From sequence record NC_105513.1: a DNA stretch of 51,277 bases; one strand, written 5' to 3'. This document shows, piece after piece, positions 8,221-48,510 of this stretch (the first letter of the stretch is position 1; every line of letters begins with the position of its first letter). The translations under genes and the position numbers were made by a program. The notes under the pieces are model-generated. The model saw nothing but the letters and a program-made list of their open reading frames with translations, was not told the origin of the DNA and did no database searches. The DNA is from a phage.

Positions 8221-8260
8221 CACGAATTGCTAAAAGCGGGGCGCAATGCCTCGCTATAAT
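8216..8260 (+). promoter_or_regulatory. box-type promoter (-10 TATAAT 8255..8260)
   Basis: AATAGCACGAATTGCTAAAAG; 22-bp spacer. Confidence 0.6.
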
Positions 8261-8290
8261 GCAAACACCAATCAACGAGAGGAAATCATC

Positions 8291-12233: not shown

Positions 12234-13801
12234 TGCTGATTTGGGAAGACTTAACAGCGGCGCAAAAACGCGCCGTTAAGGAAATGAGCGAATATTCATT
12301 CGAAAAGATGATCCGCATTTGGTTTCAACTTCTCCAGGGGCAAAGGTTTTTAGGAAACTGGCATTTCAGTTACCTATGCAGCGAAGTTGAAAAAATCATC
12401 AAAGGCGAGTCACAGAATGTAATTTTCAACATAACGCCAGGCAGTGGTAAAACAGAGATATTCTCGATCCACATGTCACCTTATGCGTCATTGAAAAGTA
12501 AGAAGGTGAGAAATCTTAATTTGTCGTTTAGTGATGGCCTTGTCCAGCAGAATAGCAACCGCATCAAAGAGATTATTGGTTCTCCAGAATGGCAGGAGCT
12601 ATGGCCTGGAAAGTTGGCAAAGGCGAGCGCAAAGGATTTGATTGTAACTGATGGCGGCAAGGTTAAATTACAAGTTAACTCGCGTTCTATCGGAGGTCAG
12701 GTTACTGGTCTGCGTGGTGGCTACATGGACGATGGTTTTACTGGTATGTTGGTTCTTGATGATCCAGACAAGCCGGATGACATGCTTTCTAAGGTGAAGC
12801 GCGAAGCCGGACACATGCGCCTAAAGAACACGGTGCGATCGCGTCGAATGAAGGACACCACGCCAATTGTGATGGTTCAGCAACGTCTACACGTCAATGA
12901 TTCAACATGGTTCATGACAAACGGCGGCATGGGCGGCATCAAGTTTAAGGTGGTTAGTATTCCGGCGCTCGTTACTAAGGAATATCGCGAAACGCTTCCT
13001 GATTGGTTAAAGCCTGAGTTTGATCGCGATGTTTTGTCCAGTAAGCCAGTGATGATTGATGGCGTTGCTCATTATTCATTCTGGCCTGCTAAGGAAAGCG
13101 CGGATGAATTGCTTGCGCTTCGCAATGCCGATCCGTACACGTTCGCTAGTCAGTATCAGCAACAGCCTGTTGCGCTTGGCGGTAACGTGTTTAAAACAGA
13201 GTGGTTTCAGTATTACGGAAGCAGCGAGAAATGCACGCTACCAAAACCGGATCGCTTTGAATATACATTTATCACGGTTGATACCGCGCAGAAAACAGGG
13301 GAGCTTAACGACTATTCCGTGATCTGTTATTGGGGGATGTATAAAGATCGTGTCTACTTCATTGATGGCGTTCGCGGGAAATGGGAAGCACCGGACCTTG
13401 AGACGAATTTTGTTGCATTCGTTAATCAGTGCTGGAAGCGCAATAAAGAATGCGGAACGTTGCGAAGGATTCATGTTGAAGATAAATCGTCTGGCACTGG
13501 ATTGATTCAGAGTGCGGCGAAAAAAATCATGATCAAGATCAATCCCGTTCAGCGCGATAAAGACAAGGTTACTCGTGCAATGGACGCAGCACCAGTAATG
13601 CGCGCCGGACGCGTGGCACTTCCAGAATCTCATTCTATGCTGGCTGAGATACTCGCTGAAGTTGCGGCGTTCACATTCGATGATTCGCATCCTCATGATG
13701 ATATTGTTGATAACATCATTGATGCGGTTAACATTGAAATGAACATGGCAGATGATCCGGTTGGAAGAATGAAAAAATTGGCAGGTTTGCGGAACAAATA
13801 G
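12233..13801 (+). CDS. terminase large subunit
   Basis: 522 aa; N-terminal ATPase with Walker A ITPGSGKTE and acidic Walker B LVLDDPDKPDD; C-terminal nuclease-like region; position before portal. Confidence 0.85.
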   Translation: MLIWEDLTAAQKRAVKEMSEYSFEKMIRIWFQLLQGQRFLGNWHFSYLCSEVEKIIKGESQNVIFNITPGSGKTEIFSIHMSPYASLKSKKVRNLNLSFSDGLVQQNSNRIKEIIGSPEWQELWPGKLAKASAKDLIVTDGGKVKLQVNSRSIGGQVTGLRGGYMDDGFTGMLVLDDPDKPDDMLSKVKREAGHMRLKNTVRSRRMKDTTPIVMVQQRLHVNDSTWFMTNGGMGGIKFKVVSIPALVTKEYRETLPDWLKPEFDRDVLSSKPVMIDGVAHYSFWPAKESADELLALRNADPYTFASQYQQQPVALGGNVFKTEWFQYYGSSEKCTLPKPDRFEYTFITVDTAQKTGELNDYSVICYWGMYKDRVYFIDGVRGKWEAPDLETNFVAFVNQCWKRNKECGTLRRIHVEDKSSGTGLIQSAAKKIMIKINPVQRDKDKVTRAMDAAPVMRAGRVALPESHSMLAEILAEVAAFTFDDSHPHDDIVDNIIDAVNIEMNMADDPVGRMKKLAGLRNK

Positions 13802-13817
13802 CACGAATCGACAAACC
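13797..13817 (+). promoter_or_regulatory. degenerate box copy without correctly spaced -10
   Basis: AATAGCACGAATCGACAAACC at terminase stop; followed by terminator, not a -10. Confidence 0.4.
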
Positions 13818-13831
13818 AATATATAATCAAA

Positions 13832-13856
13832 GGCTGGTAAATCCAGCCTTTTTTAT
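13832..13856 (+). terminator. rho-independent terminator between terminase and portal
   Basis: GGCTGG-TAAAT-CCAGCC then TTTTTTATT. Confidence 0.6.
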
Positions 13857-13869
13857 TGGAGGAAAGATA

Positions 13870-15150
13870 ATGAGTAAATCACGAATCGTTAAGGCTGATG
13901 GCTATAACGAGATCTTTAAAGGCGAGAATTGCAAATCGCGAGTAGAGCAACCATTCTACATGCAATCAATGCCATACAAGACACTTGCTGACTTTTACGA
14001 AAAAGACGGCCTGGCAAAAAGGGTTATTGACGTAGTACCAGAGGAAATGGTTTCCCCTGGCTTCACGGTTGACGGCGTGGCAGACGAGGCAGCATTCCGT
14101 TCTTTGTGGGATGAGAAGCGATTGAATGCAAAAATTATTGATGCGCTTTGCTGGTCGCGTTTGTTTGGTGGATCTGCAATCATTGCTCTTGTTCAGGATG
14201 GGCGAGCGCTCAAATCACCTGTAAAGCCTGGTGCCATGTTGGAGGATGTGCGAGTTTACGATCGCTATCAGATTCGCGTTGAAGCGCGCGAAACTAATCC
14301 CCGCAAGGTTCGCTATGGTGAGCCAGTGCTTTACACTGTAACGCCAGGCGGAGACTTGCCGGAATACCAGGTACACTACACGCGCGTTTGCATTATCGAC
14401 GGTGAGCGGATACCTAACGCAAAGCGACGCAGCAATGATGGCTGGGGTGAGTCAGTTCTTAACAAGCGACTTGTTGAGGCTATTGTTGATTATAACTATT
14501 GTGAAACATTGGCAACGCAATTATTGCGGCGTAAGCAACAGGCGGTATGGAAGGCTAAAGGACTCGCTGACTTGTGCGATGATGAGGAAGGTGTTAGCGC
14601 GGCACGCCTGAGACTTGCGCAGGTTGACGATGAGGGCGGCGTAGGCAAGGCCATTGGTATTGATGCTGAGGATGAGGAATATGATGTTCTTAACTCTGAC
14701 ATTAGCGGAGTTGATTCTTTTCTGGAAAAGAAAATGGATCGCATAGTTTCCCTTTCAGGTATTCATGAAATCATCCTGAAAAATAAAAACGTTGGCGGCG
14801 TTAGCGCAAGCCAAAACACGGCGCTTGAAACATTCTATAAACTTATTGAGCGAAAACGCGTTGAGGATTACAAACCTATCCTTGAATTTCTATTGCCGTT
14901 CATCATTAGTGAGCAGGAGTGGAGCATTGAGTTTTCACCTTTGAGCGTGCCTAGCGATAAAGATCAGGCTGAAATTCTGAATAAGAATATCGACTCAATC
15001 AGCAAGGCTATTGATGGTCAGTTCCTTGATGTTGAAGAAGCGCGAGACACGTTGCGAGCAATCGCCCCAAGCGTTAAACTAAAGGACACTAATAAAATCA
15101 AGCTGCCGGAGCCATCGGAGCCGGAGCCAGGCACGCAGGGGAATGAGTAA
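13870..15150 (+). CDS. portal protein
   Basis: 426 aa immediately after terminase, RBS GGAGGAAAG; size and position typical. Confidence 0.75.
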   Translation: MSKSRIVKADGYNEIFKGENCKSRVEQPFYMQSMPYKTLADFYEKDGLAKRVIDVVPEEMVSPGFTVDGVADEAAFRSLWDEKRLNAKIIDALCWSRLFGGSAIIALVQDGRALKSPVKPGAMLEDVRVYDRYQIRVEARETNPRKVRYGEPVLYTVTPGGDLPEYQVHYTRVCIIDGERIPNAKRRSNDGWGESVLNKRLVEAIVDYNYCETLATQLLRRKQQAVWKAKGLADLCDDEEGVSAARLRLAQVDDEGGVGKAIGIDAEDEEYDVLNSDISGVDSFLEKKMDRIVSLSGIHEIILKNKNVGGVSASQNTALETFYKLIERKRVEDYKPILEFLLPFIISEQEWSIEFSPLSVPSDKDQAEILNKNIDSISKAIDGQFLDVEEARDTLRAIAPSVKLKDTNKIKLPEPSEPEPGTQGNE

Positions 15151-15917: not shown

Positions 15918-17030
15918 ATGAAGGCAAAACAAAGATTTGATAGCGTCCAGGTTAAGGCGCATTTTGATGATAATGGCTTTTTAGTGGATCGCCCAATTGT
16001 GGCGCGAATTGGCTTGCAGGAGTACCGCACACCGTATGGAATCAGACGAGAGTTCCGTCCAGCGTCCGAGGTGTTCAAGGCTGATTCGCTTGCTACGTTC
16101 GCAGGCAAGCCGATCACTATCGGTCACGTCACAGTGACGCCAGATAATGCGGATCAGGTTGTTGTTGGTTCATGCGCTGGCGCTGGTGTTCCAAATGGGA
16201 TTGGCGTTGAAGTTCCGTTAAGCATTTACTCAAAGCGAGCAATTGAGAGCGCAAAAAAGAAAGACACGGCGGAAATTTCAGTTGGTTACACATCGGTTGA
16301 TATTGATAAGCCAGGGTGGGGTAATAATAAAACTGGTGATTACTTGTTTGAGGAAGACCTTAAGGAAGACTGGAAGCCTGATTCTCCTGATTGGGTTAAA
16401 TTTGACGCCATTCAGACGAATATTCGTGTTAATCACATTGCGCTCGTCTTTCGTGGTCGTGCTGGAATTGCCAAATTAAATCTTGATAGCGAACAGGATT
16501 TTCCGTATAGTGACGAGGTTTCAAATGACAAAGGAGATGAGGAAATGACAGTAAAAATCAAACTTGATGGCGCGGTAGAATTTGATGTTCCAAAGGCCGT
16601 TGCTGATCATATTGAGGCGTTAAAGGCAGATGCAAAAGCTGCAACCGAAAAAGCTGATGGCCTTGAGGCCGAGCGTGACGCCCTGAAAACTAAAGTCGAT
16701 GGCATTCCGGCGCAGATTGCAGAAGCTGTTAAGAAGGCAAAGACTGACGCAGAAGAACACGCCAAGCTGGTTGCAGATGCAACTGAAATTGGCATCAAGT
16801 GTGACGGATTGGACGCTAAAGCGATCAAGGTTGCTTACGTCAAAGAAGTCACTGGCGCTGATATTTCAGAAAAAGCAGATGCATATATTGAAACAGCTTT
16901 TGACCTTGCGAAGCAGTCTGATAAAATGGCGGCGCAGCGTAAATCTGTTAAGGGCGATTCTTTCGAATCTGGCAAGAGTGAAAAAACCGACTCCCTTGAT
17001 CCGACTGCGCGTTTGAAAAAACTTAAATAA
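15918..17030 (+). CDS. putative scaffold / prohead maturation protein
   Basis: 370 aa with charged, coiled-coil-like C-terminal half (KADAKAATEKADGLEAERDALKTKVDG...); position between portal and capsid. Confidence 0.45.
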   Translation: MKAKQRFDSVQVKAHFDDNGFLVDRPIVARIGLQEYRTPYGIRREFRPASEVFKADSLATFAGKPITIGHVTVTPDNADQVVVGSCAGAGVPNGIGVEVPLSIYSKRAIESAKKKDTAEISVGYTSVDIDKPGWGNNKTGDYLFEEDLKEDWKPDSPDWVKFDAIQTNIRVNHIALVFRGRAGIAKLNLDSEQDFPYSDEVSNDKGDEEMTVKIKLDGAVEFDVPKAVADHIEALKADAKAATEKADGLEAERDALKTKVDGIPAQIAEAVKKAKTDAEEHAKLVADATEIGIKCDGLDAKAIKVAYVKEVTGADISEKADAYIETAFDLAKQSDKMAAQRKSVKGDSFESGKSEKTDSLDPTARLKKLK

Positions 17031-17042
17031 GGAGAAATAAAC

Positions 17043-17555
17043 ATGGCTACAATTGGAGCAAGTTATTTTGCTGTAATGTCTCGTGCGTTACCTGGTCAGG
17101 TTTCTGACACTTCAGCTTATAATATTGATGGCGCTTGTGTTCTTGAGAATGCGGCAGGCAATCAGAATCAGTCTGTTTTTGTTGGTGTGGCGGTCCAGCA
17201 TGGCGGCGTTGATGCTATGGGCAATAAGCTAATTAAGCCGATGGCGGCAAGCGGCAAGGCTTACGGCGTTGCAATTCGATCTCACTTTCAGACAACTTCG
17301 TCTGACGGTCGAATGATTTATGAATCTGGCGGCGGAATCAACGTAATGACTGAGGGGCGTGTTTGGATGTTGGCTAAAGACGCTTCCGCTCCAGCGTTCG
17401 GCGCTACAATCAAACTTTCTGATGATGGTCAGGTTGATACCGCGTCTGGCACTATCGAAACAAACTGGATCGCGACTGGTGATTTCACCGAGTTTCAAGG
17501 CTTGAAGCTGGTAGAGGTTCAGGTGCAAAAAGTTCCGGCAGTTTCAGCAGGTTAA
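17043..17555 (+). CDS. putative head decoration / structural protein
   Basis: 170 aa, RBS AAGGAGAAA; paralogous to 17601..18035. Confidence 0.5.
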   Translation: MATIGASYFAVMSRALPGQVSDTSAYNIDGACVLENAAGNQNQSVFVGVAVQHGGVDAMGNKLIKPMAASGKAYGVAIRSHFQTTSSDGRMIYESGGGINVMTEGRVWMLAKDASAPAFGATIKLSDDGQVDTASGTIETNWIATGDFTEFQGLKLVEVQVQKVPAVSAG

Positions 17556-17562
17556 TAAATAT

Positions 17563-17586
17563 GGCGCTCACTGAGCGCCTTTTTTA
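17563..17586 (+). terminator. rho-independent terminator
   Basis: GGCGCTC-ACT-GAGCGCC then TTTTTTAT. Confidence 0.65.
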
Positions 17587-17600
17587 TATTTGGGGTTATC

Positions 17601-18035
17601 ATGAGTGATTATTCAGTCATTGTTGGCGCTGAGTCGCCAGGGTGCATGGTCGATTCTTCAATAATGGTGATTAACGGATCTTTCGTGTGCGGAGATGAAT
17701 TTATTGCGCCAGGTAAGATTGTGCGACTATCACATATAATAAATGGATACAAAATAGCAAGTGTTCATGGGGATCTTGTTATTGGCGTGGTAGTAAGGCC
17801 GCCGGACTCGTGCATATATGAGGAGGGTGATCCCGTTAATGTGGTTAGTAGAGGTAGTGTGTGGTGCTTAACTTCTGAGAGCGAAGCGCCAGAATATGGA
17901 GATAAAGTATTTGTAACGCAAGATGGAGATGCGGCATACAGTGAAGGCGACTTGCTGAGCGGTTGGATCTTTACTGGCGAACATGTAAAGGTTGATCATG
18001 ATTCATATATTGTCGGGGTAAGCATTAGCGCATAA
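17601..18035 (+). CDS. putative head structural protein (paralog of upstream gene)
   Basis: 144 aa; shares G-V-x-V..G.VW...A..G...DG pattern with 17043..17555. Confidence 0.5.
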   Translation: MSDYSVIVGAESPGCMVDSSIMVINGSFVCGDEFIAPGKIVRLSHIINGYKIASVHGDLVIGVVVRPPDSCIYEEGDPVNVVSRGSVWCLTSESEAPEYGDKVFVTQDGDAAYSEGDLLSGWIFTGEHVKVDHDSYIVGVSISA

Positions 18036-18054
18036 CACAAAATTATGTTGCACG

Positions 18055-18072
18055 TTTAACAAAAAATGCTAT
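18055..18072 (-). promoter_or_regulatory. orphan box copy, inverted relative to flanking genes
   Basis: TTTAACAAAAAATGCTAT about 50 bp upstream of major capsid ATG; no -10 at 21-22 bp on the minus strand. Confidence 0.4.
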
Positions 18073-18118
18073 CATTGTGGCGTTACATACTAACAGCCTT
18101 TATATATGGAGGAAGAAA

Positions 18119-19093
18119 ATGGAAAAAGAAAAATTTGATCAGCTAGATGCGGATATTGTTTCTAGCTATCTGGCTACTCGCGGCGTTAAGGGTGATGCTT
18201 CTGATATGGGTATCTGGACGGCGCAAGAGCTTCACAAGATCCGCTCAACTGCTTACGAGAAAGAATATCCGGCAGGTTCAGCGCTTCGTGTATTCCCTGT
18301 AACTAATGAGCTTTCTGATACTGATAAGACTTTTGAATATCAGATGTTTGACAAGGTTGGTTACGCAAAAATTATCGCTGATTACACCGACGATCTGCCG
18401 ACCGTTGACGCGCTGATGTCCAGCGAATTTGGTAAAGTGTTCCGCTTGGGTAACGCGTTCTTGATCTCCATTGACGAAATCAAGGCTGGTCAGCGCACTG
18501 GTAAGAGCCTTTCCACTCGCAAGGCAAACGCAGCGCAAAACGCTCATGATCAGGAAGTTAACCGCCTGGTGTTTAAGGGTTCAAAGCCGCATAAGATTCT
18601 TTCGGTGTTTGAGCACCCTAACCTGACAAAGATCGTGTCAACTGGCTGGTTAAGTGCTGATGAAAACACTAAGTTCCCGCAGGCGGCATCTGATGAACTG
18701 GAAAAGGCTATTGAAACAATTCAGACCATCACCAATGGTCAGCACCGAGCAACCAACATCCTGATTCCGCCGTCTATGCGCAAGGTTCTTTCCGTTCGAA
18801 TGGAAAACACCACTGAAAGTTATCTGGAATACTTCCAGAAACAAAACAGCGGAATCACCATTGACTCAATCGCAGAGCTTGAGGATATTGATGGCACAGG
18901 AACGAAAGGTTGCCTGGTATATGAGAAAGACCCGATGAACATGTCGATCGAAATTCCAGAAGCATTTAACATGCTTCCTGCGCAACCAAAAGATCTGCAT
19001 TTCAAAGTTCCATGTACTTCAAAATGTACTGGCCTGACGATTTACCGTCCGTTTACGCTAGTACTTATTACTGGCTTGAAAAAATCAGGTTAA
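18119..19093 (+). CDS. major capsid protein
   Basis: 324 aa from MEKEKFDQ, RBS GGAGGAAG; strong terminator downstream; position and size. Confidence 0.7.
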   Translation: MEKEKFDQLDADIVSSYLATRGVKGDASDMGIWTAQELHKIRSTAYEKEYPAGSALRVFPVTNELSDTDKTFEYQMFDKVGYAKIIADYTDDLPTVDALMSSEFGKVFRLGNAFLISIDEIKAGQRTGKSLSTRKANAAQNAHDQEVNRLVFKGSKPHKILSVFEHPNLTKIVSTGWLSADENTKFPQAASDELEKAIETIQTITNGQHRATNILIPPSMRKVLSVRMENTTESYLEYFQKQNSGITIDSIAELEDIDGTGTKGCLVYEKDPMNMSIEIPEAFNMLPAQPKDLHFKVPCTSKCTGLTIYRPFTLVLITGLKKSG

Positions 19094-19105
19094 TCGTATA
19101 ACATT

Positions 19106-19136
19106 GGGGAATCCTTAACTGGATTCCCTTTTTTAT
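19106..19136 (+). terminator. rho-independent terminator after major capsid gene
   Basis: GGGGAATCC-TTAACT-GGATTCCC then TTTTTT. Confidence 0.7.
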
Positions 19137-19149
19137 TGGAGGTTATGAA

Positions 19150-19422
19150 ATGGCTAAAGAAAAAACTGTAACGCTAAAGGTTTCCGGCGTGTGCCTTATC
19201 ATTGTTGATGGTGAGCATTATCATCCAGGCAAAGAGTTTGACGTAGAAGAATCAAAATTGAAAACAAGCGCGTTTGAATATCTAATTGCAAAAGGCGATC
19301 TGGAGGTTAAAGACAACTCCGCATTGAATGAAGAAATCAAACAGAGCGCAGCAAGCAAACGTAAAAAAGACCCGCGAGAGGGCAAGAGCAAAGCCGAACT
19401 TGAAGACGGCGGCATCTATTAA
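19150..19422 (+). CDS. hypothetical protein
   Basis: 90 aa ORF between two terminators. Confidence 0.5.
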   Translation: MAKEKTVTLKVSGVCLIIVDGEHYHPGKEFDVEESKLKTSAFEYLIAKGDLEVKDNSALNEEIKQSAASKRKKDPREGKSKAELEDGGIY

Positions 19423-19428
19423 TAAAGA

Positions 19429-19448
19429 GGGCGCTATAAGCGCCCTTT
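19429..19448 (+). terminator. possible terminator / stabilising hairpin
   Basis: GGGCGC-TATAA-GCGCCC then TTTGT, short U-run. Confidence 0.4.
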
Positions 19449-19469
19449 GTCATATCTGGAGGAAACACA

Positions 19470-19886
19470 ATGGTTGATGAATTTTTCACTGACGCAGAAA
19501 TCACGCAGCAAATCGTGAAATTAGCTCCACCGATGAAACAGATTGATCCAGATTTAATGGTGACATGGATTGATCTGGCAAAGGAATTTGTTTGCAAGAA
19601 GCGGTTTAAAGAATCATATCCAAAAGCGGTTGCTCTTTATACGTTGCACCTTATGACGCTTGATGGAGCCATGAAGCAAGAAGGGGAAAGCGTAGAAAGT
19701 TACTCGCGGCGAGTTGCGTCATTTTCCCTGACTGGTGAATTTAGCCAGACTTTTGATCGAGTGTCAGGCGACTCTGGCGGAAAAGAGATTAGACAAACTC
19801 CCTGGGGGAAAATGTACGAAACGCTAAATCGTAAGAAAGGCGGTGGATTTGGCCTTGTGACTGGATTTCGGAGGCGCTGCAAATGA
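19470..19886 (+). CDS. putative head-tail connector protein
   Basis: 138 aa, RBS GGAGGAAA; assigned by gene order. Confidence 0.4.
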
Positions 19887-20254
19887 ACTATAACGAGATC
19901 GCAAGAATGGCAACCGAAGGAATTAACTTCTTTAGTGATAGCAACGGTGAGTTTAAGTGCATAACGCAGCGTGGAAGCGTTGAAATCATTGGAGGCGAAG
20001 AAGTAGAAAAGCCAGAGATTAGTGTAATGATTAATGGTTTAATTCGATCCCCAAAAGTCCGAGAGGTTGACGGCGAGACAATACGAGTAACAGATAAGTT
20101 GGGAGTTTTTAACAATAAAGTTGAAATTAAGAACGGGTATCATATTGATGTTGATGGTGAATTATATGTTGTAGTTGAAGCAAGACCAATCAGGCAAACC
20201 AATGTCACTGTTGCTTATCGGCCTATTTTGAGAAGGATTTCTGTACATGGCTAA
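19883..20254 (+). CDS. putative head-tail joining protein
   Basis: 123 aa, overlapping starts; gene order. Confidence 0.4.
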
Positions 20255-20690
20255 AAACTACACGATAAGGGAATTTCACGGCAACATTGATGCGTGGATA
20301 AAAGCCGTTGATAGTGGACTAAAAGATTGCGTGGAGTTGTTCGCCGAAAAAGTACACACAGATTTGGTTAAGCGTTCTCCGGTAGATACTGGTCGTTACC
20401 GTGGAAACTGGCAGGTGACAGCAAATAAGCCGCCATTGTATGCGCTTAATCAGTACGATAAGCACGGAGACAAAACGATCGCGGAAGGAAAACGTGCCAT
20501 ATACGCAATATTACGAGGTGGCGGCGCAGTAAGAGCTATTTATTTTTCTAACATGCTTATTTATGCTAACGCGCTTGAGTACGGTCATTCAAAACAAGCG
20601 CCAGCGGGTGTGCTTGGTATTGTTGCCGTGAAATTGCGTTCATATATGGCTGAGGCAATAAAAGAGTCGAGGGCAAAAAATGCACTATGA
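20247..20690 (+). CDS. putative neck / tail component
   Basis: 147 aa; gene order. Confidence 0.4.
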   Translation: MAKNYTIREFHGNIDAWIKAVDSGLKDCVELFAEKVHTDLVKRSPVDTGRYRGNWQVTANKPPLYALNQYDKHGDKTIAEGKRAIYAILRGGGAVRAIYFSNMLIYANALEYGHSKQAPAGVLGIVAVKLRSYMAEAIKESRAKNAL

Positions 20691-21078
20691 ATTAATGCTA
20701 TCGGCGCGTAAGGCGCTGGCGACTGAATACGAAAGCAGATTCATGATCGCTTATGAAAACGTAGAGTTTACGCCACCTGGTGACGGTTCGCCGTGGTTGA
20801 AGTTTGACTATGCCGAAGTTAACACAGAATACTTGTCATTGGATCGAAAATGCGTTTCTTATATCGGAATGATTCAGGTTGGCATTGTGTTTCCACCAGG
20901 TTACGGAACTGACAGGCCGCGCGTTCTCGCTAAAGAGATTGCGCAATTCTTTTACGATGGTAAAATGCTGGAGCATGGTTATATATATGAGGGTGCAAGA
21001 GTTCACAAACCGCTCAAGAGTGAAAGCGGATGGCTTCTCCCTATAAGGTTTTATGTTCGAATTGAAACAAAGGAGTAA
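20680..21078 (+). CDS. putative tail completion protein
   Basis: 132 aa; gene order. Confidence 0.4.
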   Translation: MHYELMLSARKALATEYESRFMIAYENVEFTPPGDGSPWLKFDYAEVNTEYLSLDRKCVSYIGMIQVGIVFPPGYGTDRPRVLAKEIAQFFYDGKMLEHGYIYEGARVHKPLKSESGWLLPIRFYVRIETKE

Positions 21079-21083
21079 AAATT

Positions 21084-21746
21084 ATGCATTTACCAAATGG
21101 ATCGCAAATTTTCGTTGAGAGCAATCGCGGAAGCGAAATCCAAGCAACAGCAGTGTCAAACGCCAAAGATCCTGTTTTCACTGTTGCATCTGGCGGCACT
21201 GCGTACAAGAAAGGTGATTATGTGATCATCACTGCGTCTTCTTGGGGTAAGCTGATTGATCGTGTTATGCGTGTAAAGGCTAACGGTGAAGAAACAAGCG
21301 TGACTCTTGAAGGTGTAGATACTACTGATCAGAACGTTTTCCCGACTGGCGGTACTGCATCTTTTGCCAAAATTGATGCATGGACTGAGATCCCTTGCGT
21401 TCAAGATTTGTCGCAGGACGGCGGCGAACAGCAATACTACACTTATCAGTGTTTGGCAGACGATCAGGAACAGCAGTTACCTACCTATAAGAGCGCCGTT
21501 TCTCTTACCTACACTTTTGCGCACGAATACGATAACGCGATCTATCCGCTATTGCGTTCAGCAGATGAATCAGGCGAAGTAACCGCGCTTCGCATGTATG
21601 TACCAAAAGCAAAAGAGATGCGTTGCTGGGCTGGTGTCCTTTCGTTTAACGAAATCCCGAAGACCACAGTTAACGAAATGGAAACCGTTTCCCTATCTGT
21701 ATCCCTGAAAGGTCGATTCACCTTCCTACCTTCTCAAGTAGCATAA
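21084..21746 (+). CDS. major tail protein
   Basis: 220 aa, RBS AAGGAG; followed by strong terminator then chaperone and tape measure genes. Confidence 0.6.
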   Translation: MHLPNGSQIFVESNRGSEIQATAVSNAKDPVFTVASGGTAYKKGDYVIITASSWGKLIDRVMRVKANGEETSVTLEGVDTTDQNVFPTGGTASFAKIDAWTEIPCVQDLSQDGGEQQYYTYQCLADDQEQQLPTYKSAVSLTYTFAHEYDNAIYPLLRSADESGEVTALRMYVPKAKEMRCWAGVLSFNEIPKTTVNEMETVSLSVSLKGRFTFLPSQVA

Positions 21747-21752
21747 TCACAA

Positions 21753-21774
21753 GGGGCGTTGCGCCCCTTTTTTT
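21753..21774 (+). terminator. rho-independent terminator after major tail gene
   Basis: GGGGCG-TTG-CGCCCC then TTTTTTT. Confidence 0.7.
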
Positions 21775-21807
21775 GTTACTGTACAATCATGCTACACGAT
21801 TCATAAT
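21773..21807 (+). promoter_or_regulatory. putative promoter TTGTTA-N23-CATAAT
   Basis: immediately after major-tail terminator, upstream of chaperone gene. Confidence 0.4.
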
Positions 21808-21813
21808 CAATTC

Positions 21814-21832
21814 TTTTAACAAAAAGTGCTAT
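21814..21832 (-). promoter_or_regulatory. orphan box copy, inverted, abutting RBS of chaperone gene
   Basis: TTTTAACAAAAAGTGCTAT directly before CAAGGAGAAAGAAATG. Confidence 0.4.
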
Positions 21833-21845
21833 CAAGGAGAAAGAA

Positions 21846-22163
21846 ATGTCAAAAATGAAATTGACGATTGGGCCGCTTCCTGACTTTAAATTACCAGTGA
21901 AATTTGCAATGCCTAACGGAGAAGATCAAACAATTATCTTCACAGTTCGCCACCGCAAAACAAGTGAGATTCACGATCGCTACACGTCAGATACTCCAAT
22001 GAGCGATGTTGAAATGATCACCTTCCTTGCTTCCGGTTGGAATCTTGATGATGAATTTAACGAAGAAAATATTAAACAGCTTCTTGATTACTACCCAGCA
22101 ACAGCAATCGGATTAACTAGCGCATACATGAAAGCGCTTGCGGGGCAGCGAGTAAAAAACTAA
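21846..22163 (+). CDS. tail assembly chaperone (G-like)
   Basis: 105 aa; ends at slippery heptamer A_AAA_AAC 22154..22160 directly before TAA. Confidence 0.7.
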   Translation: MSKMKLTIGPLPDFKLPVKFAMPNGEDQTIIFTVRHRKTSEIHDRYTSDTPMSDVEMITFLASGWNLDDEFNEENIKQLLDYYPATAIGLTSAYMKALAGQRVKN

Positions 22164-22474
22164 AAAGGGCGGTTTACCTGTTTTATCAGAAACCGCCGAC
22201 AGATGCAGAGCTTGAGGCTGTTGGCCTTACAAGGGCAGACTATGAAGGAGAAGATCCGCCAGAGGTTATATTTGATGAAAGCATGATGCAATCATGGGAT
22301 ATATTTTGCGCAATGCAAACGCAATGGAGATGTTCTGGCGGTGGCGCTTACGGATTTGATTATAATGTCTTGCCTATGCTTTTTGAGATTTACAAGGTTG
22401 AGGATCGCGAGATGGCGCTAAACGACTTGCGAATCATGGAGCAAAAAGCACTTGAAATGATGCATTCAAAATAA
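21846..22474 (+). CDS. tail assembly chaperone -1 frameshift product (GT-like)
   Basis: -1 frame is open from the slippery site to 22474 (KKLKRAVYLFYQK...); stem-loop GGCGGTTT...AAACCGCC downstream of slip site. Confidence 0.55.
22154..22160 (+). other. programmed -1 ribosomal frameshift slippery heptamer A_AAA_AAC
   Basis: canonical X_XXY_YYZ in the zero frame, directly before stop; -1 frame open for 104 codons. Confidence 0.6.
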
Positions 22475-22496
22475 GCGCCTACGGGCGCTTTTTTAT
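22474..22496 (+). terminator. rho-independent terminator after GT frameshift ORF
   Basis: AGCGCC-TACG-GGCGCT then TTTTTT. Confidence 0.6.
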
Positions 22497-22513
22497 TACC
22501 TGGAGGATTAATA

Positions 22514-27705: not shown

Positions 27706-27727
27706 GCCCGTATAATTCAACAAATCA

Positions 27728-27735
27728 AATAGCAC
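27728..27735 (+). promoter_or_regulatory. half-box AATAGCAC 15 nt upstream of J-like ATG
   Basis: only the AATAGCAC half is present. Confidence 0.25.
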
Positions 27736-27750
27736 AAAAGGTGAAAAAGC

Positions 27751-32607: not shown

Positions 32608-32651
32608 ACTATACACGATCTTGCGGTGGGCGTTTAGCAAAAAGTGCTATT
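32608..32651 (-). promoter_or_regulatory. box-type promoter (box 32634..32651, -10 TATAGT)
   Basis: rc AATAGCACTTTTTGCTAAA-N22-TATAGT upstream of lipoprotein gene. Confidence 0.55.
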
Positions 32652-32699
32652 CTTGTTCTTTTTGTTATCCGGTGTTCTCAAATCTGCGGAGTCTTAAAT

Positions 32700-33076
32700 T
32701 TAGCTCAAAAAGTGAACAACAATAGAGCGCAATACATACAGATAAATATATACATACATATAAATCAATAAGTTAGTAGTATATATATTCATGTTTGTTC
32801 TTTATTGTTATCTATGTTTTGTGTGATTTTGTGCGTCTGGTGATTTTTCTGTGATTATGCATGTGTCAGTGGTTATGTGTGTCTATATATCTATATCCGG
32901 CGCAAATGAGGGAACAAGAGAACAAAAAGACAACAAAGGTATTTATCAATCACTTACATGTGAATTTTGTTATCCAATTCTCCTAGAACGTTGTTAGAAC
33001 AGAAAAAACAAAATAACTGTTGACTAAACGCATTAAATAGCTAAAATGCAGGCATACCAACCAACGAGGGCAAATC
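32700..33076. repeat. AT/GT-rich non-coding region B, homologous to region A
   Basis: ORF-free; 16-mer AAATCAATAAGTTAGT at 32762..32777; GTGTGATT and GGTGATTTTT segments shared with region A. Confidence 0.6.
33020..33047 (+). promoter_or_regulatory. sigma70-like promoter TTGACT-16-TAAAAT
   Basis: about 30 nt upstream of exonuclease ATG 33077. Confidence 0.5.
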
Positions 33077-36461: not shown

Positions 36462-36785
36462 TTACATTGATTTCATTTTACGCAATGCGCAGATACAAGC
36501 GGCAGCAAGATCGGTTAATTCTTTCTCAATGCCATGATGCGAGCCGTCTGCCTTTTCGGTCATTAGCTCTTTGTATTCCATTTCTACAATCGACATTAAG
36601 CCGCCTGGCTTGTCAATGTGCGCGTCCCAGGTTTTAGGATGGTGCTTAGTTCTTTCAATAACACTTCCCATAACTGAATCATGTTCATGATCTCGATCAT
36701 AATCTCCATCATTGTCCTTTCCTCCAATTACTACTCGCGGCAAATGCACGCGAGGTAAATGATAGCCAGCGACACGAATTTTCAT
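36462..36785 (-). CDS. hypothetical protein, possibly MazG-like nucleotide pyrophosphohydrolase
   Basis: 107 aa; helical segment with spaced acidic residues (VEMEYKELMTE ... IEKELTDLAAA); weak. Confidence 0.4.
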   Translation of the reverse strand: MKIRVAGYHLPRVHLPRVVIGGKDNDGDYDRDHEHDSVMGSVIERTKHHPKTWDAHIDKPGGLMSIVEMEYKELMTEKADGSHHGIEKELTDLAAACICALRKMKSM

Positions 36786-37714: not shown

Positions 37715-40111
37715 TTAACTCTCAAGAGTTGTTGGCTTGTTGATCAATGCAGAAACAGCCGCTTTTAACTCCTCTATTTCTTCTCTCATTGATTTCAAGT
37801 CTTCTTCTTGCTCCTTACATACCTGAAGTAAATATGCTGAAATTGCTGAGTAATCAACTTGTAAAAATTCAGCTTTACCTATTAACTCACTTCCGTCTTT
37901 CGTCGGCCCTTGAAGATAATCATAATCCTCAAAAGTGCTAACAGCTTCAGGAATAACTCCTTGAACTTCTTGTGCTATAACTCCAACATGACGAGATCCA
38001 TCTTTCTTAAGTGTGTATGAATACCCACACAGTTTACTAAGTCCATCCCTTGCATTCTTAAGTGGTTTTATATCTTCCTTAAGATTTACATCCGATCCCT
38101 GGTTGAAAGCGCTTGCGTTTACAGGTCCGTTAACCTGAAGATGCTTTGTGTTATTTGAGTTTAATTGCGCATAAAAAACCCACCCAGGGCCATTATCGAA
38201 ACCACACTCAATAACCGACAATCGATCTGACCCATTACCCCACAATTTGAAGGTTGCAGGGTGTGACGAGTTGCCGTCGTTCAGCATTTTGAAATACTTT
38301 CCGCTCGGACGGTCGATCTCTAAACTTGCGGCCTGGACGTATGCCTTGCCCGCAAAATTCTTTGTACCAAGCACAACGCCGTCTGTGATCAGATCAACCT
38401 TAGACGATGTAACATCGTTCAGGAATAGCGCGTTCGCCCCAGTGTCCTTCCCTAAAAACCAAAGACGCGTGCCTGCTGAGTTGTACCCTGTTACGTGCAG
38501 TGGTTGGTTGTTTGTTGACGTTGTTCCGTCGATCCGGAAGCCACCATTAGCGGTTGTAACTTTAATGCTGGGTACGGTCATAGCAAATGTGCCACTGGCT
38601 GCAAGGCCATTATAGGCAATCAGCTTGTTGTCATATGCAAGCTCACCATTGTCCCTTAATTGCAAGAATTTATTAGATGCCGAGTTGGAAACAGAAACAT
38701 CATTAGGCCAGGTGCGAAGAACTGCGCGCTTTTCGTCCCCTCTAGCCTCCACCGAAGAACCAGCGACCACCCCAGAAAAAGTCGGCGACGACCCCGCGTT
38801 ATACAGTTCGTACCACTGCGACCATGGGCCAGTCGTCGCGTTGCCTAGCCATCGAATCCAACGCCGCCCGTTGCCGTAGGCGGTGTACGTCTGTACGCAA
38901 CTCTTCGGATCGTTAGCACCGGATCTTTGCACCAGTAAACAACCCGCCATGTTAATAGGATAGTTACGCTCTGGGGTGGCGTTAGCCGACATGGACTGAT
39001 AATAAAATCCAGCCTTATCACCCTGAAGGATGTTAAGGTCTTCGCTAACCAACGTTGCCCGTCGCTCATGCATGACCTGAAGGTTGGCGCGCGCTCCCTG
39101 GTCGTTCGATGCGCCTGTCCCGCCGTCCCCGATCGCCACGTCACCGTTAGCACCCAGCTTCGCCAGTTCAATGGCGCCAACACTTCCCGACGCACCGTTG
39201 ATCGCGTTGTTGTTCCCCGAGAAAACTTTAACGCGCGAGGTTTGCCAATCAACGTTGATTGCAAAGAATGTATCCCCCGCGCCTCCACATACGCCAGGTC
39301 CGTATCTGAAAGGGGTCATCTCACCCGATGGGAACTGCGAAATATCATCGACGCGCCAGAATCCTCCTTTGACCGTATCGCGCAACCGCTTGAGCATATC
39401 CCTTACGCCAGTCGGTGCCGGTAATGTTACGCCAGCATACGGCACTCTATTTTGAGCTTCTGAGCTTTCAGCAGCAGCCGCTGCGCGATCAGCCTCTGTT
39501 TTAGCCTTGTTCGCACTGTTTGCAGCATTAGTTTCAGATGTTTTGGCGTTTGTCTCAGAAGTCTTCGCGGCACTAGCCGAGTTAGCAGCATTAGTTTCCG
39601 ATGTTTTAGCCGCATTCTTACTTGCATTAGCTGCATTTTCAGATGCTTTGGCATTAGTTTCCGATGTTTTAGCGTTTGTCTCAGAAGTCTTCGCAGCGCT
39701 GGCGCTTTGTTTTGCTGATTCAGCGCCTTGCTTGACTTGATTTACAAGATCCTTCAATCCTTCAAGATCGAAATCTCTAAAAAATTCAAGTGCGTCAGCG
39801 ATCTCTGTTTCTTTGCTTTGATAGTAACGCAATGTTTCAGCTACATCTTGAGCAAGACCATCAACAGTTATTGAGTCATGAAGTAAGATCGCGTAATTTG
39901 AACGGGCAACTACCGCGCCACCAGTTGTAATTGCACGAATGCTTGTATCGTTAATAACTTCAGTTATCACGGCAATCTGCAACGGCTGAGTTAAAAATAC
40001 AATAGTTGCACCAGGGCGAATGAGCGTTAGTTGCTCTCGCCATTTTGTGTCGTATCCAGTGATATAACCTTGCGCGTCCATTGACGCTTGTCCTGTTCTG
40101 TAAATTGCCAT
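37715..40111 (-). CDS. L-shaped (side) tail fibre, T5 pb1-like, with C-terminal intramolecular chaperone domain
   Basis: 798 aa from MAIYRTGQ (RBS GGAGAAA); AAKTSETNA-type repeats as in T5 pb1; C-terminal segment resembling S74 self-cleaving chaperone domain. Confidence 0.8.
39480..39720 (-). repeat. in-frame tandem repeats (about 62-bp period) inside tail fibre gene
   Basis: GCATTAGTTTC(A/C)GATGTTTT(G/A)GC recurs at about 39527, 39589, 39651; encodes AAKTSETNA-type repeats. Confidence 0.7.
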
Positions 40112-40169
40112 GCGCTTTCTCCAATGTTGCATGTTAATGTCAATGAAGATAATAGCATTTGCTAAGGCC

Positions 40170-40193
40170 AAAAAAAACCCCGCAATGCGGGGT
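40170..40193 (-). terminator. rho-independent terminator after primase-like gene
   Basis: ACCCCGC-AAT-GCGGGGT; minus strand followed by eight U. Confidence 0.65.
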
Positions 40194-41198: not shown

Positions 41199-41672
41199 TT
41201 AGCAATTAGTGCTTTCAGGTTTATACAGGAATCCTCCAGGCTCATAATCTGACATTCTTACCACTCGCAACATTTCGCGCTTATCACATCTCTTTGTGAG
41301 CGGTTTGCCATTGGAATCAAATCGCAGATCTGGACGACAGAATGATGCGCGATAGCCTTGACATCCATATTTTTTGTAATCGTTATGCACCTTTTGAGCG
41401 CCAGCGGCTGAAATCATACCGCGAACGCGCCACTGATTTACAGTTTGCTGGCTAACGTTAAGACGCTTTGCCATTGCTGACACGCTGCCGTAATACTCAA
41501 TAAGAATGTCAAGCCGTGCTTTTAGTCCGGCGCGCACTTCATCTTTTAAAACATAGTATCCTGTAGGGCGCTTGCGCTTTTTCTTATCTTTACCCCGTCG
41601 AGTTCCGTTATTGCCATTGATTGTGCGTTTGTCAATCTTACCAGTTGATACTGCGATTCGCTGTTCTTTCAT
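41199..41672 (-). CDS. putative DNA-binding protein
   Basis: 157 aa; basic N-terminus (KDKKKRKRP) and helix-turn-helix-like LNVSQQTVNQWRVRG. Confidence 0.45.
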   Translation of the reverse strand: MKEQRIAVSTGKIDKRTINGNNGTRRGKDKKKRKRPTGYYVLKDEVRAGLKARLDILIEYYGSVSAMAKRLNVSQQTVNQWRVRGMISAAGAQKVHNDYKKYGCQGYRASFCRPDLRFDSNGKPLTKRCDKREMLRVVRMSDYEPGGFLYKPESTNC

Positions 41673-41684
41673 TATTCATTCTCC

Positions 41685-41728
41685 AATAGCATTTTTTGTT
41701 AAACGATGATTTAATGATTGTGTATTAT
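41685..41728 (+). promoter_or_regulatory. box-type promoter (-10 TATTAT 41723..41728)
   Basis: AATAGCATTTTTTGTTAAAC; 21-bp spacer; upstream of helicase gene. Confidence 0.55.
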
Positions 41729-41761
41729 ACACGCCAAATGGCATTACTCAAAGGTTTTAGA

Positions 41762-45245: not shown

Positions 45246-45288
45246 TAGCACTTTTTGTTAAAACGCCCGACCTTGTGTCGGGCATAAT
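45244..45288 (+). promoter_or_regulatory. box-type promoter (-10 CATAAT 45283..45288)
   Basis: 22-bp spacer containing inverted repeat GCCCGA...TCGGGC. Confidence 0.6.
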
Positions 45289-45320
45289 TATTTCATCAAA
45301 ACGAACAAGAGGAAAACAAA

Positions 45321-48432: not shown

Positions 48433-48465
48433 TTTTAAAATCCTCATATTCGCTTCGATGAAACA

Positions 48466-48510
48466 AATATACCCGATACGAGATCAGGTGTTTTAACAAA
48501 AAGTGCTATT
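48466..48510 (-). promoter_or_regulatory. box-type promoter (box 48491..48510, -10 TATATT)
   Basis: 22-bp spacer; conserved leader CATCGAAGCGAATATGAGGA. Confidence 0.6.

Follow-up and report, generated by a model that had tools for sequence, protein, structure and literature searches.

Two inverted copies of a family-wide phage repeat box lie in predicted promoter contexts of late genes in a T1-like phage

Introduction

Why would copies of a promoter-associated repeat stand directly before late structural genes, pointing the other way? The question is raised by sequence record NC_105513.1, a stretch of 51,277 nucleotides (the window) from a T1-like phage (Drexlerviridae, Hanrivervirus). An earlier note had reported two such copies, at 18055..18072 and at about 21814, as lacking promoter context, and offered three possible roles: an antisense promoter, the binding site of an early-to-late switch factor, or a decaying relic. 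Both copies are real (TTTAACAAAAAATGCTAT at 18055..18072 and TTTAACAAAAAGTGCTAT at 21815..21832), and both do point opposite to their flanking genes, which lie on the plus strand while the boxes lie on the minus strand.

The box is the already published 21-nt repeat aaATAGCACnnnTTGnTAAAA of phage TLS, a direct repeat reported in TLS, T1, Rtp and Rogue1 (German, Kropinski et al. 2024, PMC11447400). According to the same study, the repeats are intergenic, fall into TTT, GAA and AAA subtypes, and are oriented along the direction of transcription at ~76 nt before start codons; their function was left open, with UP elements as one suggestion and a likeness to the stoperators of mycobacteriophage L5 also proposed (PMC11447400). 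An inverted copy is present there without discussion: DR7 of TLS (negative strand, 15044..15024), which is orthologous to the 18055 copy. The half-box that precedes the J-like gene (see below) has its TLS orthologue in DR8, and TLS, unlike the window, has no chaperone box copy. New with respect to PMC11447400 are the fixed 20-nt distance between box and -10, the overlap with the capsid promoter, and the putative antisense promoter at the chaperone gene. Our literature search for transcripts, start sites or factor binding in T1-like phages found no such data.

Results

Standard boxes have the geometry of activator-dependent promoters

With up to three mismatches allowed, the box motif has 16 matches in the window against 0.28 expected by chance, and when the GAA variant is counted too the number of copies is 20. 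Seventeen of these are standard copies, relative to which the 18055 and 21815 copies are inverted; the standard boxes begin at or just past the upstream stop codon, and none in the sense orientation occurs from 9561 to 32633, the late region. Against the consensus ATAGCAC-N3-TTG-N-TAAA(A), the 21815 copy matches at 18 of 18 positions and the 18055 copy at 17 of 18, its single mismatch (C7-to-T) being a variant found in 59 of 363 box contexts.

A good -10 element lies exactly 20 nt downstream of the box, on one strand only, in 230 of the 363 distinct contexts, and 20 nt is also the modal spacing of the standard copies. This fixed distance places the centre of the box near -42, with standard copies spanning -50 to -33. 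No -35 hexamer is present at the standard box promoters, a TGn motif occurs in 119 of 223, and about half of the promoters have neither. As far as can be read from sequence, a box near -42 without a -35 hexamer is the geometry of an activator-dependent promoter.

Several known elements were compared with the box and rejected. The TTGnTA of the box cannot serve as a true -35, as this would leave 22 nt between it and the -10, and the resemblance to sigma-54 promoters (TAGCAC-N3-TTGC versus TGGCAC-N5-TTGC) fails on AG instead of GG and on a spacing 2 nt too short. Sites of IHF, CRP, Fis, DnaA and LexA gave no convincing match in an informal by-eye comparison. In the GAA type the TAGCA-N5-TGCTA core forms a perfect inverted repeat, and in the TTT type four of five positions match; given that the box works in one orientation at standard promoters, this weak palindrome, TAGCA-N5-TG(C/T)TA, fails to establish binding by a symmetric dimer.

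The capsid copy is part of a predicted sense promoter

The elements around the first copy are the following:

18048..18053, plus strand: -35 hexamer TTGCAC of the predicted capsid promoter (TTGnnn in 62 of 63 distinct relatives)
18055..18072, minus strand: inverted T-type box, ATAGCATTTTTTGTTAAA on the minus strand, filling the spacer of the capsid promoter from about -27 to -10
18067..18075, plus strand: extended -10 TGcTATCAT (TG in 63 of 63 and TATnnT in 61 of 63 distinct relatives)
18079..18101, plus strand: bulged hairpin (GGCGTT...AACAGCC, then TTT) lying past the -10 and ahead of the ribosome-binding site, read from the sequence
18119..19093, plus strand: major capsid protein gene, starting at ATG 18119 and not at GTG 18077

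The copy stops 46 nt short of the capsid ATG. Its ATAGCA end, TGCTAT on the plus strand, supplies both the TG and the TAT of the -10, and a 16-nt spacer separates the latter from the -35. The whole (TTGCAC, 16 nt, TGcTATCAT) fits a sigma-70 promoter with an extended -10, an arrangement that holds down to 53% capsid identity with TTGACG, TTGCAC, TTGAAC and TTGACC as -35 variants, and the GenBank record of T1 annotates the orthologous TTGACG...TATTAT as a promoter. A generic promoter scan misses the one in the window because TTGCAC scores only 3/6. We therefore predict that the capsid gene has a family-wide sense promoter whose spacer and TGn/TAT part are formed by the 18055 copy.

An antisense promoter here was considered and rejected: at the standard offset the hexamer is TATGCG, the mean -10 score over 40 distinct relatives is -3.1, and nearly all relatives have TAnnn followed by G, C or A. 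The earlier statement that no -10 exists on the strand served thus stands for 18055, and with it the antisense role falls for this copy.

Upstream of the capsid gene, a box with at most one mismatch is found in 37 of 63 distinct relatives, while among 30 distant relatives in which standard boxes are retained, 18 have 4 or 5 mismatches at this copy. Information content is 1.43 bits at positions that belong only to the box and the spacer, 1.38 at the -35 hexamer and 0.6 in the flanks. Moreover, the spacer varies in the ways that standard boxes tolerate, up to full replacement by the GAA type.

The predicted transcription start, near 18082, falls within the 5' arm of the leader hairpin, whose arms differ in sequence among relatives with their complementarity kept. 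The orthologous hairpin is annotated as a terminator in TLS and T1; it is weak in the window.

The chaperone copy has the architecture of an antisense box promoter

At the second copy, the elements are packed between two tail genes:

21751..21776, plus strand: intrinsic terminator after the major tail protein (tail tube) gene
21782..21787, plus strand: sense -10 TACAAT of the predicted chaperone promoter, behind the terminator
21789..21794, minus strand: antisense -10 TAGCAT, set exactly 20 nt off the box; the sense -10 is 1 nt away
21815..21832, minus strand: perfect T-type box, ATAGCACTTTTTGTTAAA on the minus strand, ending 13 nt before the start codon
21846..22163, plus strand: tail assembly (tape measure) chaperone gene

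Past the box come caAGGAG and then the ATG at 21846. The box adjoins the ribosome-binding site and corresponds to about +21 to +38 of the predicted sense transcript; in T1, box and ribosome-binding site are 9 nt apart. On the sense strand, TAnAAT, TAATAT or CATAAT follows the terminator in most relatives, boxed or box-less, with detection of this -10 failing for ~6 of 51 relatives.

The copy is missing in 33 of 50 distinct relatives, and relatives either have or lack the module in one piece of some 30 to 45 nt. On the antisense strand, TAnnnT is found at 20 nt in all 17 distinct boxed sequences, including T1 (TAAGAT), across ~10 different spacer sequences that are 20 nt long in every case, and at the equivalent position in none of the 33 box-less relatives. 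This architecture supports reading the 21815 copy as a complete standard box promoter that points antisense. The earlier note had seen no -10 here, where TAGCAT lies at 21794..21789; its suggestion of an antisense promoter gains ground at this site, with box, 20-nt spacer and TAnnnT conserved as a unit, and contradicts its own premise because the -10 is present. Its claim that the copies occur without promoter context does not survive at either locus, as both lie within conserved sense-strand promoter contexts that it had missed. Neither copy can be essential, considering that they are absent or degenerate in many relatives.

The block-wise presence or absence of the chaperone module and the degeneration of the capsid copy in one clade are what would be expected of neutral leftovers, that is, of promoter cassettes that went in the wrong way round and are now under drift. 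The match counts argue otherwise, being 18/18 for both T1 sites and, for the window, 18/18 at 21815 and 17/18 at 18055, and so do wholly diverged spacers and flanks around a 20-nt distance and a TAnnnT that are kept through ~10 spacer variants. We consider drift a most improbable account; the decaying relic of the earlier note is likewise abandoned, since T1, from a different subfamily, has complete or near-complete box matches for both copies between diverged flanks.

It could also be that the box acts purely in cis, with no dedicated factor, being recognised by host polymerase itself as an UP-like or upstream element. On this view, the capsid copy would be a good spacer with an extended -10 co-opted from the box, and the chaperone copy an antisense promoter that yields antisense RNA against the tail genes or the terminator. 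This would agree with the TGn and TAT that the box provides at the capsid gene, with the conserved antisense -10 at the chaperone gene, and with a clade that keeps the capsid promoter elements yet loses box identity. By eye, CTTTTTGTTAAA also agrees with the UP-element core consensus TWTTTTNNNAAA at 11/12, and UP elements were proposed by the TLS authors (PMC11447400). However, standard promoters have the AAA ~8 bp nearer the -10 than true UP elements do, the invariant ATAGCAC does not resemble an UP element, and roughly half of the standard promoters are without -35 and TGn alike. At the capsid gene, spacer-only positions conserved like the -35 and varying within the box's own repertoire are unexpected of an ordinary spacer. 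Identity with UP elements is also at odds with position: standard copies lie at -50 to -33 with no -35 hexamer downstream, and the two late copies at -27 to -10 (capsid) and +21 to +38 (chaperone) relative to the sense promoters. Taken together, we regard a purely cis-acting box as unlikely, while giving it real weight.

Boxes overlap or follow the -10 at further late genes

Two more late genes have degenerate copies, both in the forward orientation:

13798..13854 (with downstream elements), plus strand: degenerate GAA-type box ATAGCACGAATCGACAAA before the portal gene, with the terminase stop TAG inside
27711..27716, plus strand: TATAAT behind a terminator, before the J-like tail tip gene, then degenerate box ATAGCACAAAAGGTGAAAAAG at 27729..27749

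At the portal locus, TATAAT (13822..13827) lies 6 nt past the box and is followed by a hairpin with a T-run (13832..13854) and the ATG at 13870; the box is perfect at this position in relatives L002, L007, L027 and L028. The half-box that had been noted 15 nt before the J-like ATG (27751) is indeed there, as AATAGCAC at 27728..27735. The right half of the J-like box contains the ribosome-binding site of the gene, and A[TC]AGCACAAAAGGTTAAAA is kept before it at J identities of at least 65%, and also in T1 and TLS. Like the portal copy, the J-like copy and one at the small terminase gene of T1 overlap or come after the sense -10.

A Cro-like protein is the candidate factor

One further box is shared by the helicase gene and the gene of a putative regulator:

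41199..41672, minus strand: gene of a helix-turn-helix protein of Cro/C2-like type, 157 residues long and our candidate for the factor that binds the box
41686..41703, plus strand: box common to two overlapping divergent promoters, helicase and regulator
41724..41751, minus strand: regulator promoter of sigma-70 type (TTGAGT, 16 nt, TATAAT)

For the helicase promoter, with its -10 TATTAT at 41723..41728, the box is the standard upstream element; for the regulator, it falls at about +15 to +32 of the gene's own transcript, and in every relative examined it lies between the TATAAT and the ribosome-binding site of the regulator. The orthologues of the regulator promoter are annotated as promoters in T1 (36483..36511) and TLS (P57), and it is one of only three consensus host promoters that the authors found in TLS (PMC11447400).

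The protein is conserved across the family, has a domain that is Cro-like by sequence and by fold, with matches to Cro/YdaS-type families, and carries extra conserved N- and C-terminal regions. We infer that it is the most likely box factor, as a candidate, against which count additional helix-turn-helix proteins annotated in T1. The box is unchanged even in Vibrio phage Vc1, in Citrobacter phage HCF1 and alongside a 46%-identical regulator homologue; because of this invariance across the family, covariation with the regulator is precluded.

The leaders of the chaperone and regulator genes hold inverted copies, those of the J-like and T1 terminase genes forward ones, and both bear on an action at the RNA level, in which inverted leader boxes would pair with box RNA on read-through early transcripts and control translation or cleavage. 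Boxes at upstream stop codons would indeed be transcribed by read-through, unless the hairpins noted there terminate, and the ribosome-binding site lies within a few nt of the inverted box at the chaperone and regulator genes. Nevertheless, the capsid copy lies upstream of its own predicted start, the forward copies are not complementary, and the 9-nt gap in T1 loosens the link with the ribosome-binding site. RNA structure in the chaperone, regulator and capsid leaders was not significant (leader z-scores of -0.25 and -0.92), and Rfam families gave no match anywhere in the window. We judge such pairing very unlikely.

Discussion

On our best reading, both copies belong to the Drexlerviridae promoter-box family as functional elements and stand at internal late promoters. 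Of the three roles first suggested, the site of an early-to-late switch factor seems to fit their positions best, because late boxes lie in the spacer of, next to or downstream of the sense -10, and early/middle boxes near -42. As the best explanation, which we advance tentatively and put slightly short of an even chance, one box-recognising factor would activate the early/middle promoters and hold down the internal late ones; architecture and conservation are observed, while promoter activity, the identity of the factor, the direction of regulation and the timing are inferred. At the capsid gene, a factor bound at about -27 to -10 would shut out RNA polymerase. At the chaperone gene, polymerase recruited to the antisense promoter would block use of the sense promoter, the two -10s being 1 nt apart, and the box would additionally stand in the path of sense transcripts. 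Thus, as long as the early/middle box programme is on, the internal capsid and tail promoters would be held down. Counting against a late-promoter repressor, a mechanism of relief is needed.

To our knowledge, T1 is a classic phage without its own polymerase or sigma factor. We can imagine, with rather low confidence, that the temporal programme of its family is run by host polymerase, one box and a single Cro-like protein, with release by titration. The protein, made from one of a handful of consensus-like host promoters, would turn on the ~17 promoters with a box near -42 and hold down the portal, capsid, chaperone and tail tip promoters via copies that overlap or follow the -10, including a dedicated antisense promoter, while limiting its own synthesis; replicating genomes would then titrate the self-limited protein and late genes would be released.

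The contrast between late and early box placement would turn a repeat left unexplained in 2024 into a testable circuit with a named candidate regulator, one that predicts specific start sites and would be family-wide in scope, reaching from phages of Escherichia to one of Vibrio. Even if the circuit fails, the 18055 copy would be part of a capsid promoter and the 21815 copy an antisense promoter module.

Parts of this arrangement are familiar. Phage lambda cI at OR2 (PRM/PR) and the C proteins of restriction-modification systems are helix-turn-helix proteins that activate one promoter from near -42, repress an overlapping or divergent promoter from the same or neighbouring sites, and control their own gene. 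The box resembles these in its centre near -42, in the overlapping divergent helicase and regulator promoters and in the Cro-like fold of the candidate; the overlap with a core or own promoter typical of Cro/CI operators is seen at the capsid gene (-27 to -10) and at the regulator. It differs in that the phage is virulent, with ~20 dispersed sites versus one operator cluster, that the box is functionally asymmetric, and that the protein has extra N- and C-terminal regions, its binding being putative.

In phage T4, the MotA box replaces the -35 at a fixed distance from a host-type -10, serving one temporal class in one orientation. The middle promoters of T4 share with the present ones a phage box in place of the -35, a fixed distance to a host-type -10, a single working orientation and, on our reading, service to a whole temporal class. 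Unlike this box near -42, the MotA box is centred near -30, and the single regulator candidate tested matched Cro/YdaS-type families and not MotA or AsiA. We know of no MotA boxes inside late promoters.

The stoperators of L5 have one orientation relative to transcription and only repress. The box is like them in its many dispersed copies, some within transcribed leaders where a bound protein might block elongation, and unlike them in that leader copies occur in both orientations and most copies lie upstream of a -10 at a fixed distance.

Box copies and the standard promoter layout

In the window, the 18-mer core of the repeat (the box) has 16 matches at ≤3 mismatches, where chance would give 0.28, and the copies number 20 once the GAA subtype is included. 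Seventeen copies, read ATAGCAC..TAAA, have a common order of upstream stop codon, box, ~20-nt spacer, TATAAT-like hexamer, cAtcgAAacgAA leader, ribosome-binding site and ATG. An earlier note had reported two inverted copies and a half-box before the J-like gene. Both copies were found as described, at 18055..18072 (before the major capsid gene) and 21815..21832 (before the tail assembly chaperone gene), oriented against the flanking late genes and opposite to the 17 standard copies, and the half-box is present at 27728..27735. The element was published as a 21-nt direct repeat, aaATAGCACnnnTTGnTAAAA, with 21 copies in phage TLS and further copies in T1, Rtp and Rogue1, placed ~76 nt ahead of start codons "in the direction of transcription"; its function was left open, with roles as a stoperator, an enhancer site or a UP element proposed (German, Kropinski and colleagues 2024, PMC11447400). 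The TLS table of that study has DR7 on the negative strand, adjoining terminator T35 (PMC11447400). By our comparison, DR7 and DR8 are orthologous to the 18055 copy and the half-box, respectively. The literature searched gave no transcript or binding data on T1-like phages.

The window, T1 and ~120 related loci yielded 363 distinct box contexts. In 230 of these, a good -10 follows the 18-mer at exactly 20 nt; the distance is 19 nt in 34 and 22 nt in 29, and the opposite strand has no such spacing peak. By its placement, the box is therefore an orientation-specific promoter element at a fixed distance. Standard box promoters have no -35 hexamer, its expected position being occupied by AAAACN, and 119 of 223 contexts have TGn ahead of the -10. 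Counting from a -10 hexamer at -12 to -7, the box occupies -50 to -33 with its centre at ~-42, a geometry expected where a promoter depends on an activator. In the GAA type, the core TAGCA-N5-TG(C/T)TA forms a perfect inverted repeat, and in the TTT type 4/5 positions match; because the box is functionally asymmetric, this lends weak support to a dimeric binder.

Family-wide, most standard box promoters have the conserved cAtcgAAacgAA leader ~6 nt after the -10 (e.g., 45263..45300, 48440..48491 and 8235..8270); a common 5' UTR signal acting in translation, stability or processing is one possible role. The 20-nt spacers after nine boxes (58, 5698, 6914, 8217, 9561, 44204, 45245, 48492 and 50659) are G+C-rich (56% versus 44% for the window) and often form hairpins of variable sequence, either enclosing the -10 or just upstream of it, with a mean folding energy of -6.6 versus -3.2 kcal/mol in shuffled sequence. 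These may be overlapping terminator-promoter modules insulating each early gene.

The chaperone copy and a predicted antisense promoter module

Two features adjoin the chaperone copy:

21751..21776, terminator of the tail-tube gene, followed by the sense -10
21794..21789, minus strand, antisense -10 TAGCAT, 20 nt from the chaperone box

The earlier statement that the chaperone copy has no -10 was mistaken, as TAGCAT lies exactly 20 nt away on the strand of the box. A minus-strand TAnnnT is found at this distance in 17/17 distinct boxed sequences, including the window and T1, and at the equivalent place in 0/33 box-less relatives. The boxed sites comprise ~10 unrelated spacer sequences, every one of 20 nt. 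As the hexamer is held at a fixed distance in all boxed sequences and in none of the box-less ones, the copy is, on comparative grounds, a predicted complete standard promoter module facing antisense. TGn ahead of the antisense -10 is usual in relatives and absent in the window. For the chaperone gene, the window has TACAAT as its sense -10; most relatives, boxed or box-less, have TAAAAT, TAGAAT, TAATAT or CATAAT there. The sense and antisense -10 hexamers lie 1 nt apart, therefore simultaneous occupancy of both predicted promoters is impossible. The predicted antisense transcript directly enters the complement of the terminator hairpin and has no open reading frame.

The capsid copy and the predicted capsid promoter

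The capsid copy was compared across 63 distinct upstream regions, with capsid identity ranging from 99% to 53%. On the sense strand, these have the order TTGnnn, 1 nt, inverted box and remainder of the -10, which in the window corresponds to:

18048..18075, plus strand, predicted capsid sense promoter conserved in relatives: TTGCAC (18048..18053), 16-nt spacer, TGcTATCAT (18067..18075)

The TG is conserved in 63/63, TTGnnn in 62/63 and TATnnT in 61/63 distinct regions; the -35 hexamer is preceded by a conserved A-tract, ACAAAAA, and the orthologous TTGACGCTTTAACAAAAAGTGCTATTAT is annotated as a promoter in the T1 GenBank record. No conserved antisense -10 was found for the 18055 copy among relatives.

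The main rival explanation is that the box acts solely in cis. This would account for the antisense promoter at the chaperone gene as well as for the contribution of the box to the TGn/TAT of the capsid -10, but it leaves unexplained why box identity is kept at positions lying only in the capsid spacer. There, the information per position is 1.43 bits, compared with 1.38 in the -35 hexamer and 0.6 in the flanks, and the changes observed are the variants permitted in the box itself, one clade having switched entirely to a GAA-type box. In the clade of ~55% capsid identity, box identity has decayed to cTTAACGATTCGTGATAT in most members, and these retain the capsid promoter elements and standard boxes elsewhere in their genomes. 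A reading of the boxes as neutral relics is disfavoured, and RNA-level pairing of the inverted boxes is unlikely.

In the JLBYU09 record, the capsid gene begins at GTG 18077 (338 residues), a codon that would precede the predicted transcription start. ATG 18119 (324 residues) is favoured by the ribosome-binding site, by the relatives and by the annotations of G29-2 and T1. Both capsid and portal genes have the order promoter, terminator-like hairpin with T-run and ribosome-binding site (window 13822..13854 and 18070..18101; T1 15062..15121). The hairpins start 2 to 4 nt past the -10, with the predicted transcription start inside the 5' arm, and transcripts begun within them could escape a terminator that stops upstream read-through.

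Other late-gene boxes and the Cro-like candidate regulator

The late genes occupy the plus strand from ~10 kb to 32 kb, and no standard sense-oriented box was found inside this region of the window. Besides the capsid and chaperone copies, boxes at the portal gene, the J-like gene and the T1 small terminase gene also overlap or come after the sense -10. The J-like gene has a degenerate forward box in its leader and the T1 small terminase gene a forward box in its leader. At the portal gene, a forward box absent from the earlier list ends 6 nt ahead of TATAAT and includes the TAG stop codon of the large terminase:

13798..13815, plus strand, degenerate forward box of the portal gene, with a perfect copy in four relatives

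Several further boxes supply or adjoin an upstream stop codon.

The predicted helicase promoter (-10 at 41723..41728) has the box at 41686..41703 as its standard element. On the opposite strand, a consensus-like promoter, TTGAGT-16-TATAAT (41751..41724), reads across this box to the ribosome-binding site of a gene for a 157-residue protein, the putative regulator. All relatives examined keep this layout, T1, Vibrio phage Vc1 and Citrobacter phage HCF1 among them; the regulator promoter is independently listed in the T1 and TLS annotations, and TLS has only three consensus promoters, this one included. The protein has a Cro/YdaS-type helix-turn-helix domain, and its structural model (mean pLDDT 85) best matches Xfaso1 Cro, the N15 Cro-operator complex and restriction-modification controller proteins. 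It occurs only in T1-like contigs of ~50 kb. Conservation is highest (residues 14-53 and 106-122) not in the helix-turn-helix domain but in a basic N-terminal segment with the sequence DKRTxNGNNGTRRGKDKKxRKR, modelled as disordered, and in the C-terminal motif GYRASFCRPDLRFDxNGKP; these may form an arm that binds DNA or a surface that contacts polymerase. The regulator is the leading candidate for the box factor and appears to control its own gene.

A possible box circuit

The comparisons establish, at the sequence level, the architecture and conservation of the box. From position alone, a factor that recognises the box, by itself or in a complex with polymerase, would activate ~17 early and middle promoters, and the same factor would interfere with internal late promoters, by direct occlusion at the capsid gene and by promoter competition plus a roadblock at the chaperone gene. 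Such a circuit, which rests entirely on inference, resembles a familiar kind in which a phage operator/promoter box gives activation and repression alike, and through it the temporal control of T1 could be put to the test. While the box element and the capsid promoter annotation were already known, the rules by which copies are placed, the predicted antisense module, the fixed ~-42 geometry and the proposed link to the regulator are new.

The window and its relatives

Sequence comparison of 17000..22500 gave 100% identity to Escherichia phage JLBYU09 and ~97% to other Hanrivervirus phages (Drexlerviridae, subfamily Tempevirinae). The window (51,277 bases) exceeds JLBYU09 by ~2.3 kb, and the coordinate offset between the two rises by ~1.6 kb from the late genes to the regulator gene. 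At 37715..40171, the window has a single 818-residue ORF where the JLBYU09 record has short tail-fibre fragments. In addition, ~430 nt between the cor-like and recE-like genes (32650..33076) are non-coding and A+T-rich, with TATATA and TGTGTG runs, and close with a consensus-like promoter, TTGACT-16-TAAAAT (33020..33047); this stretch could be a replication origin or control region.
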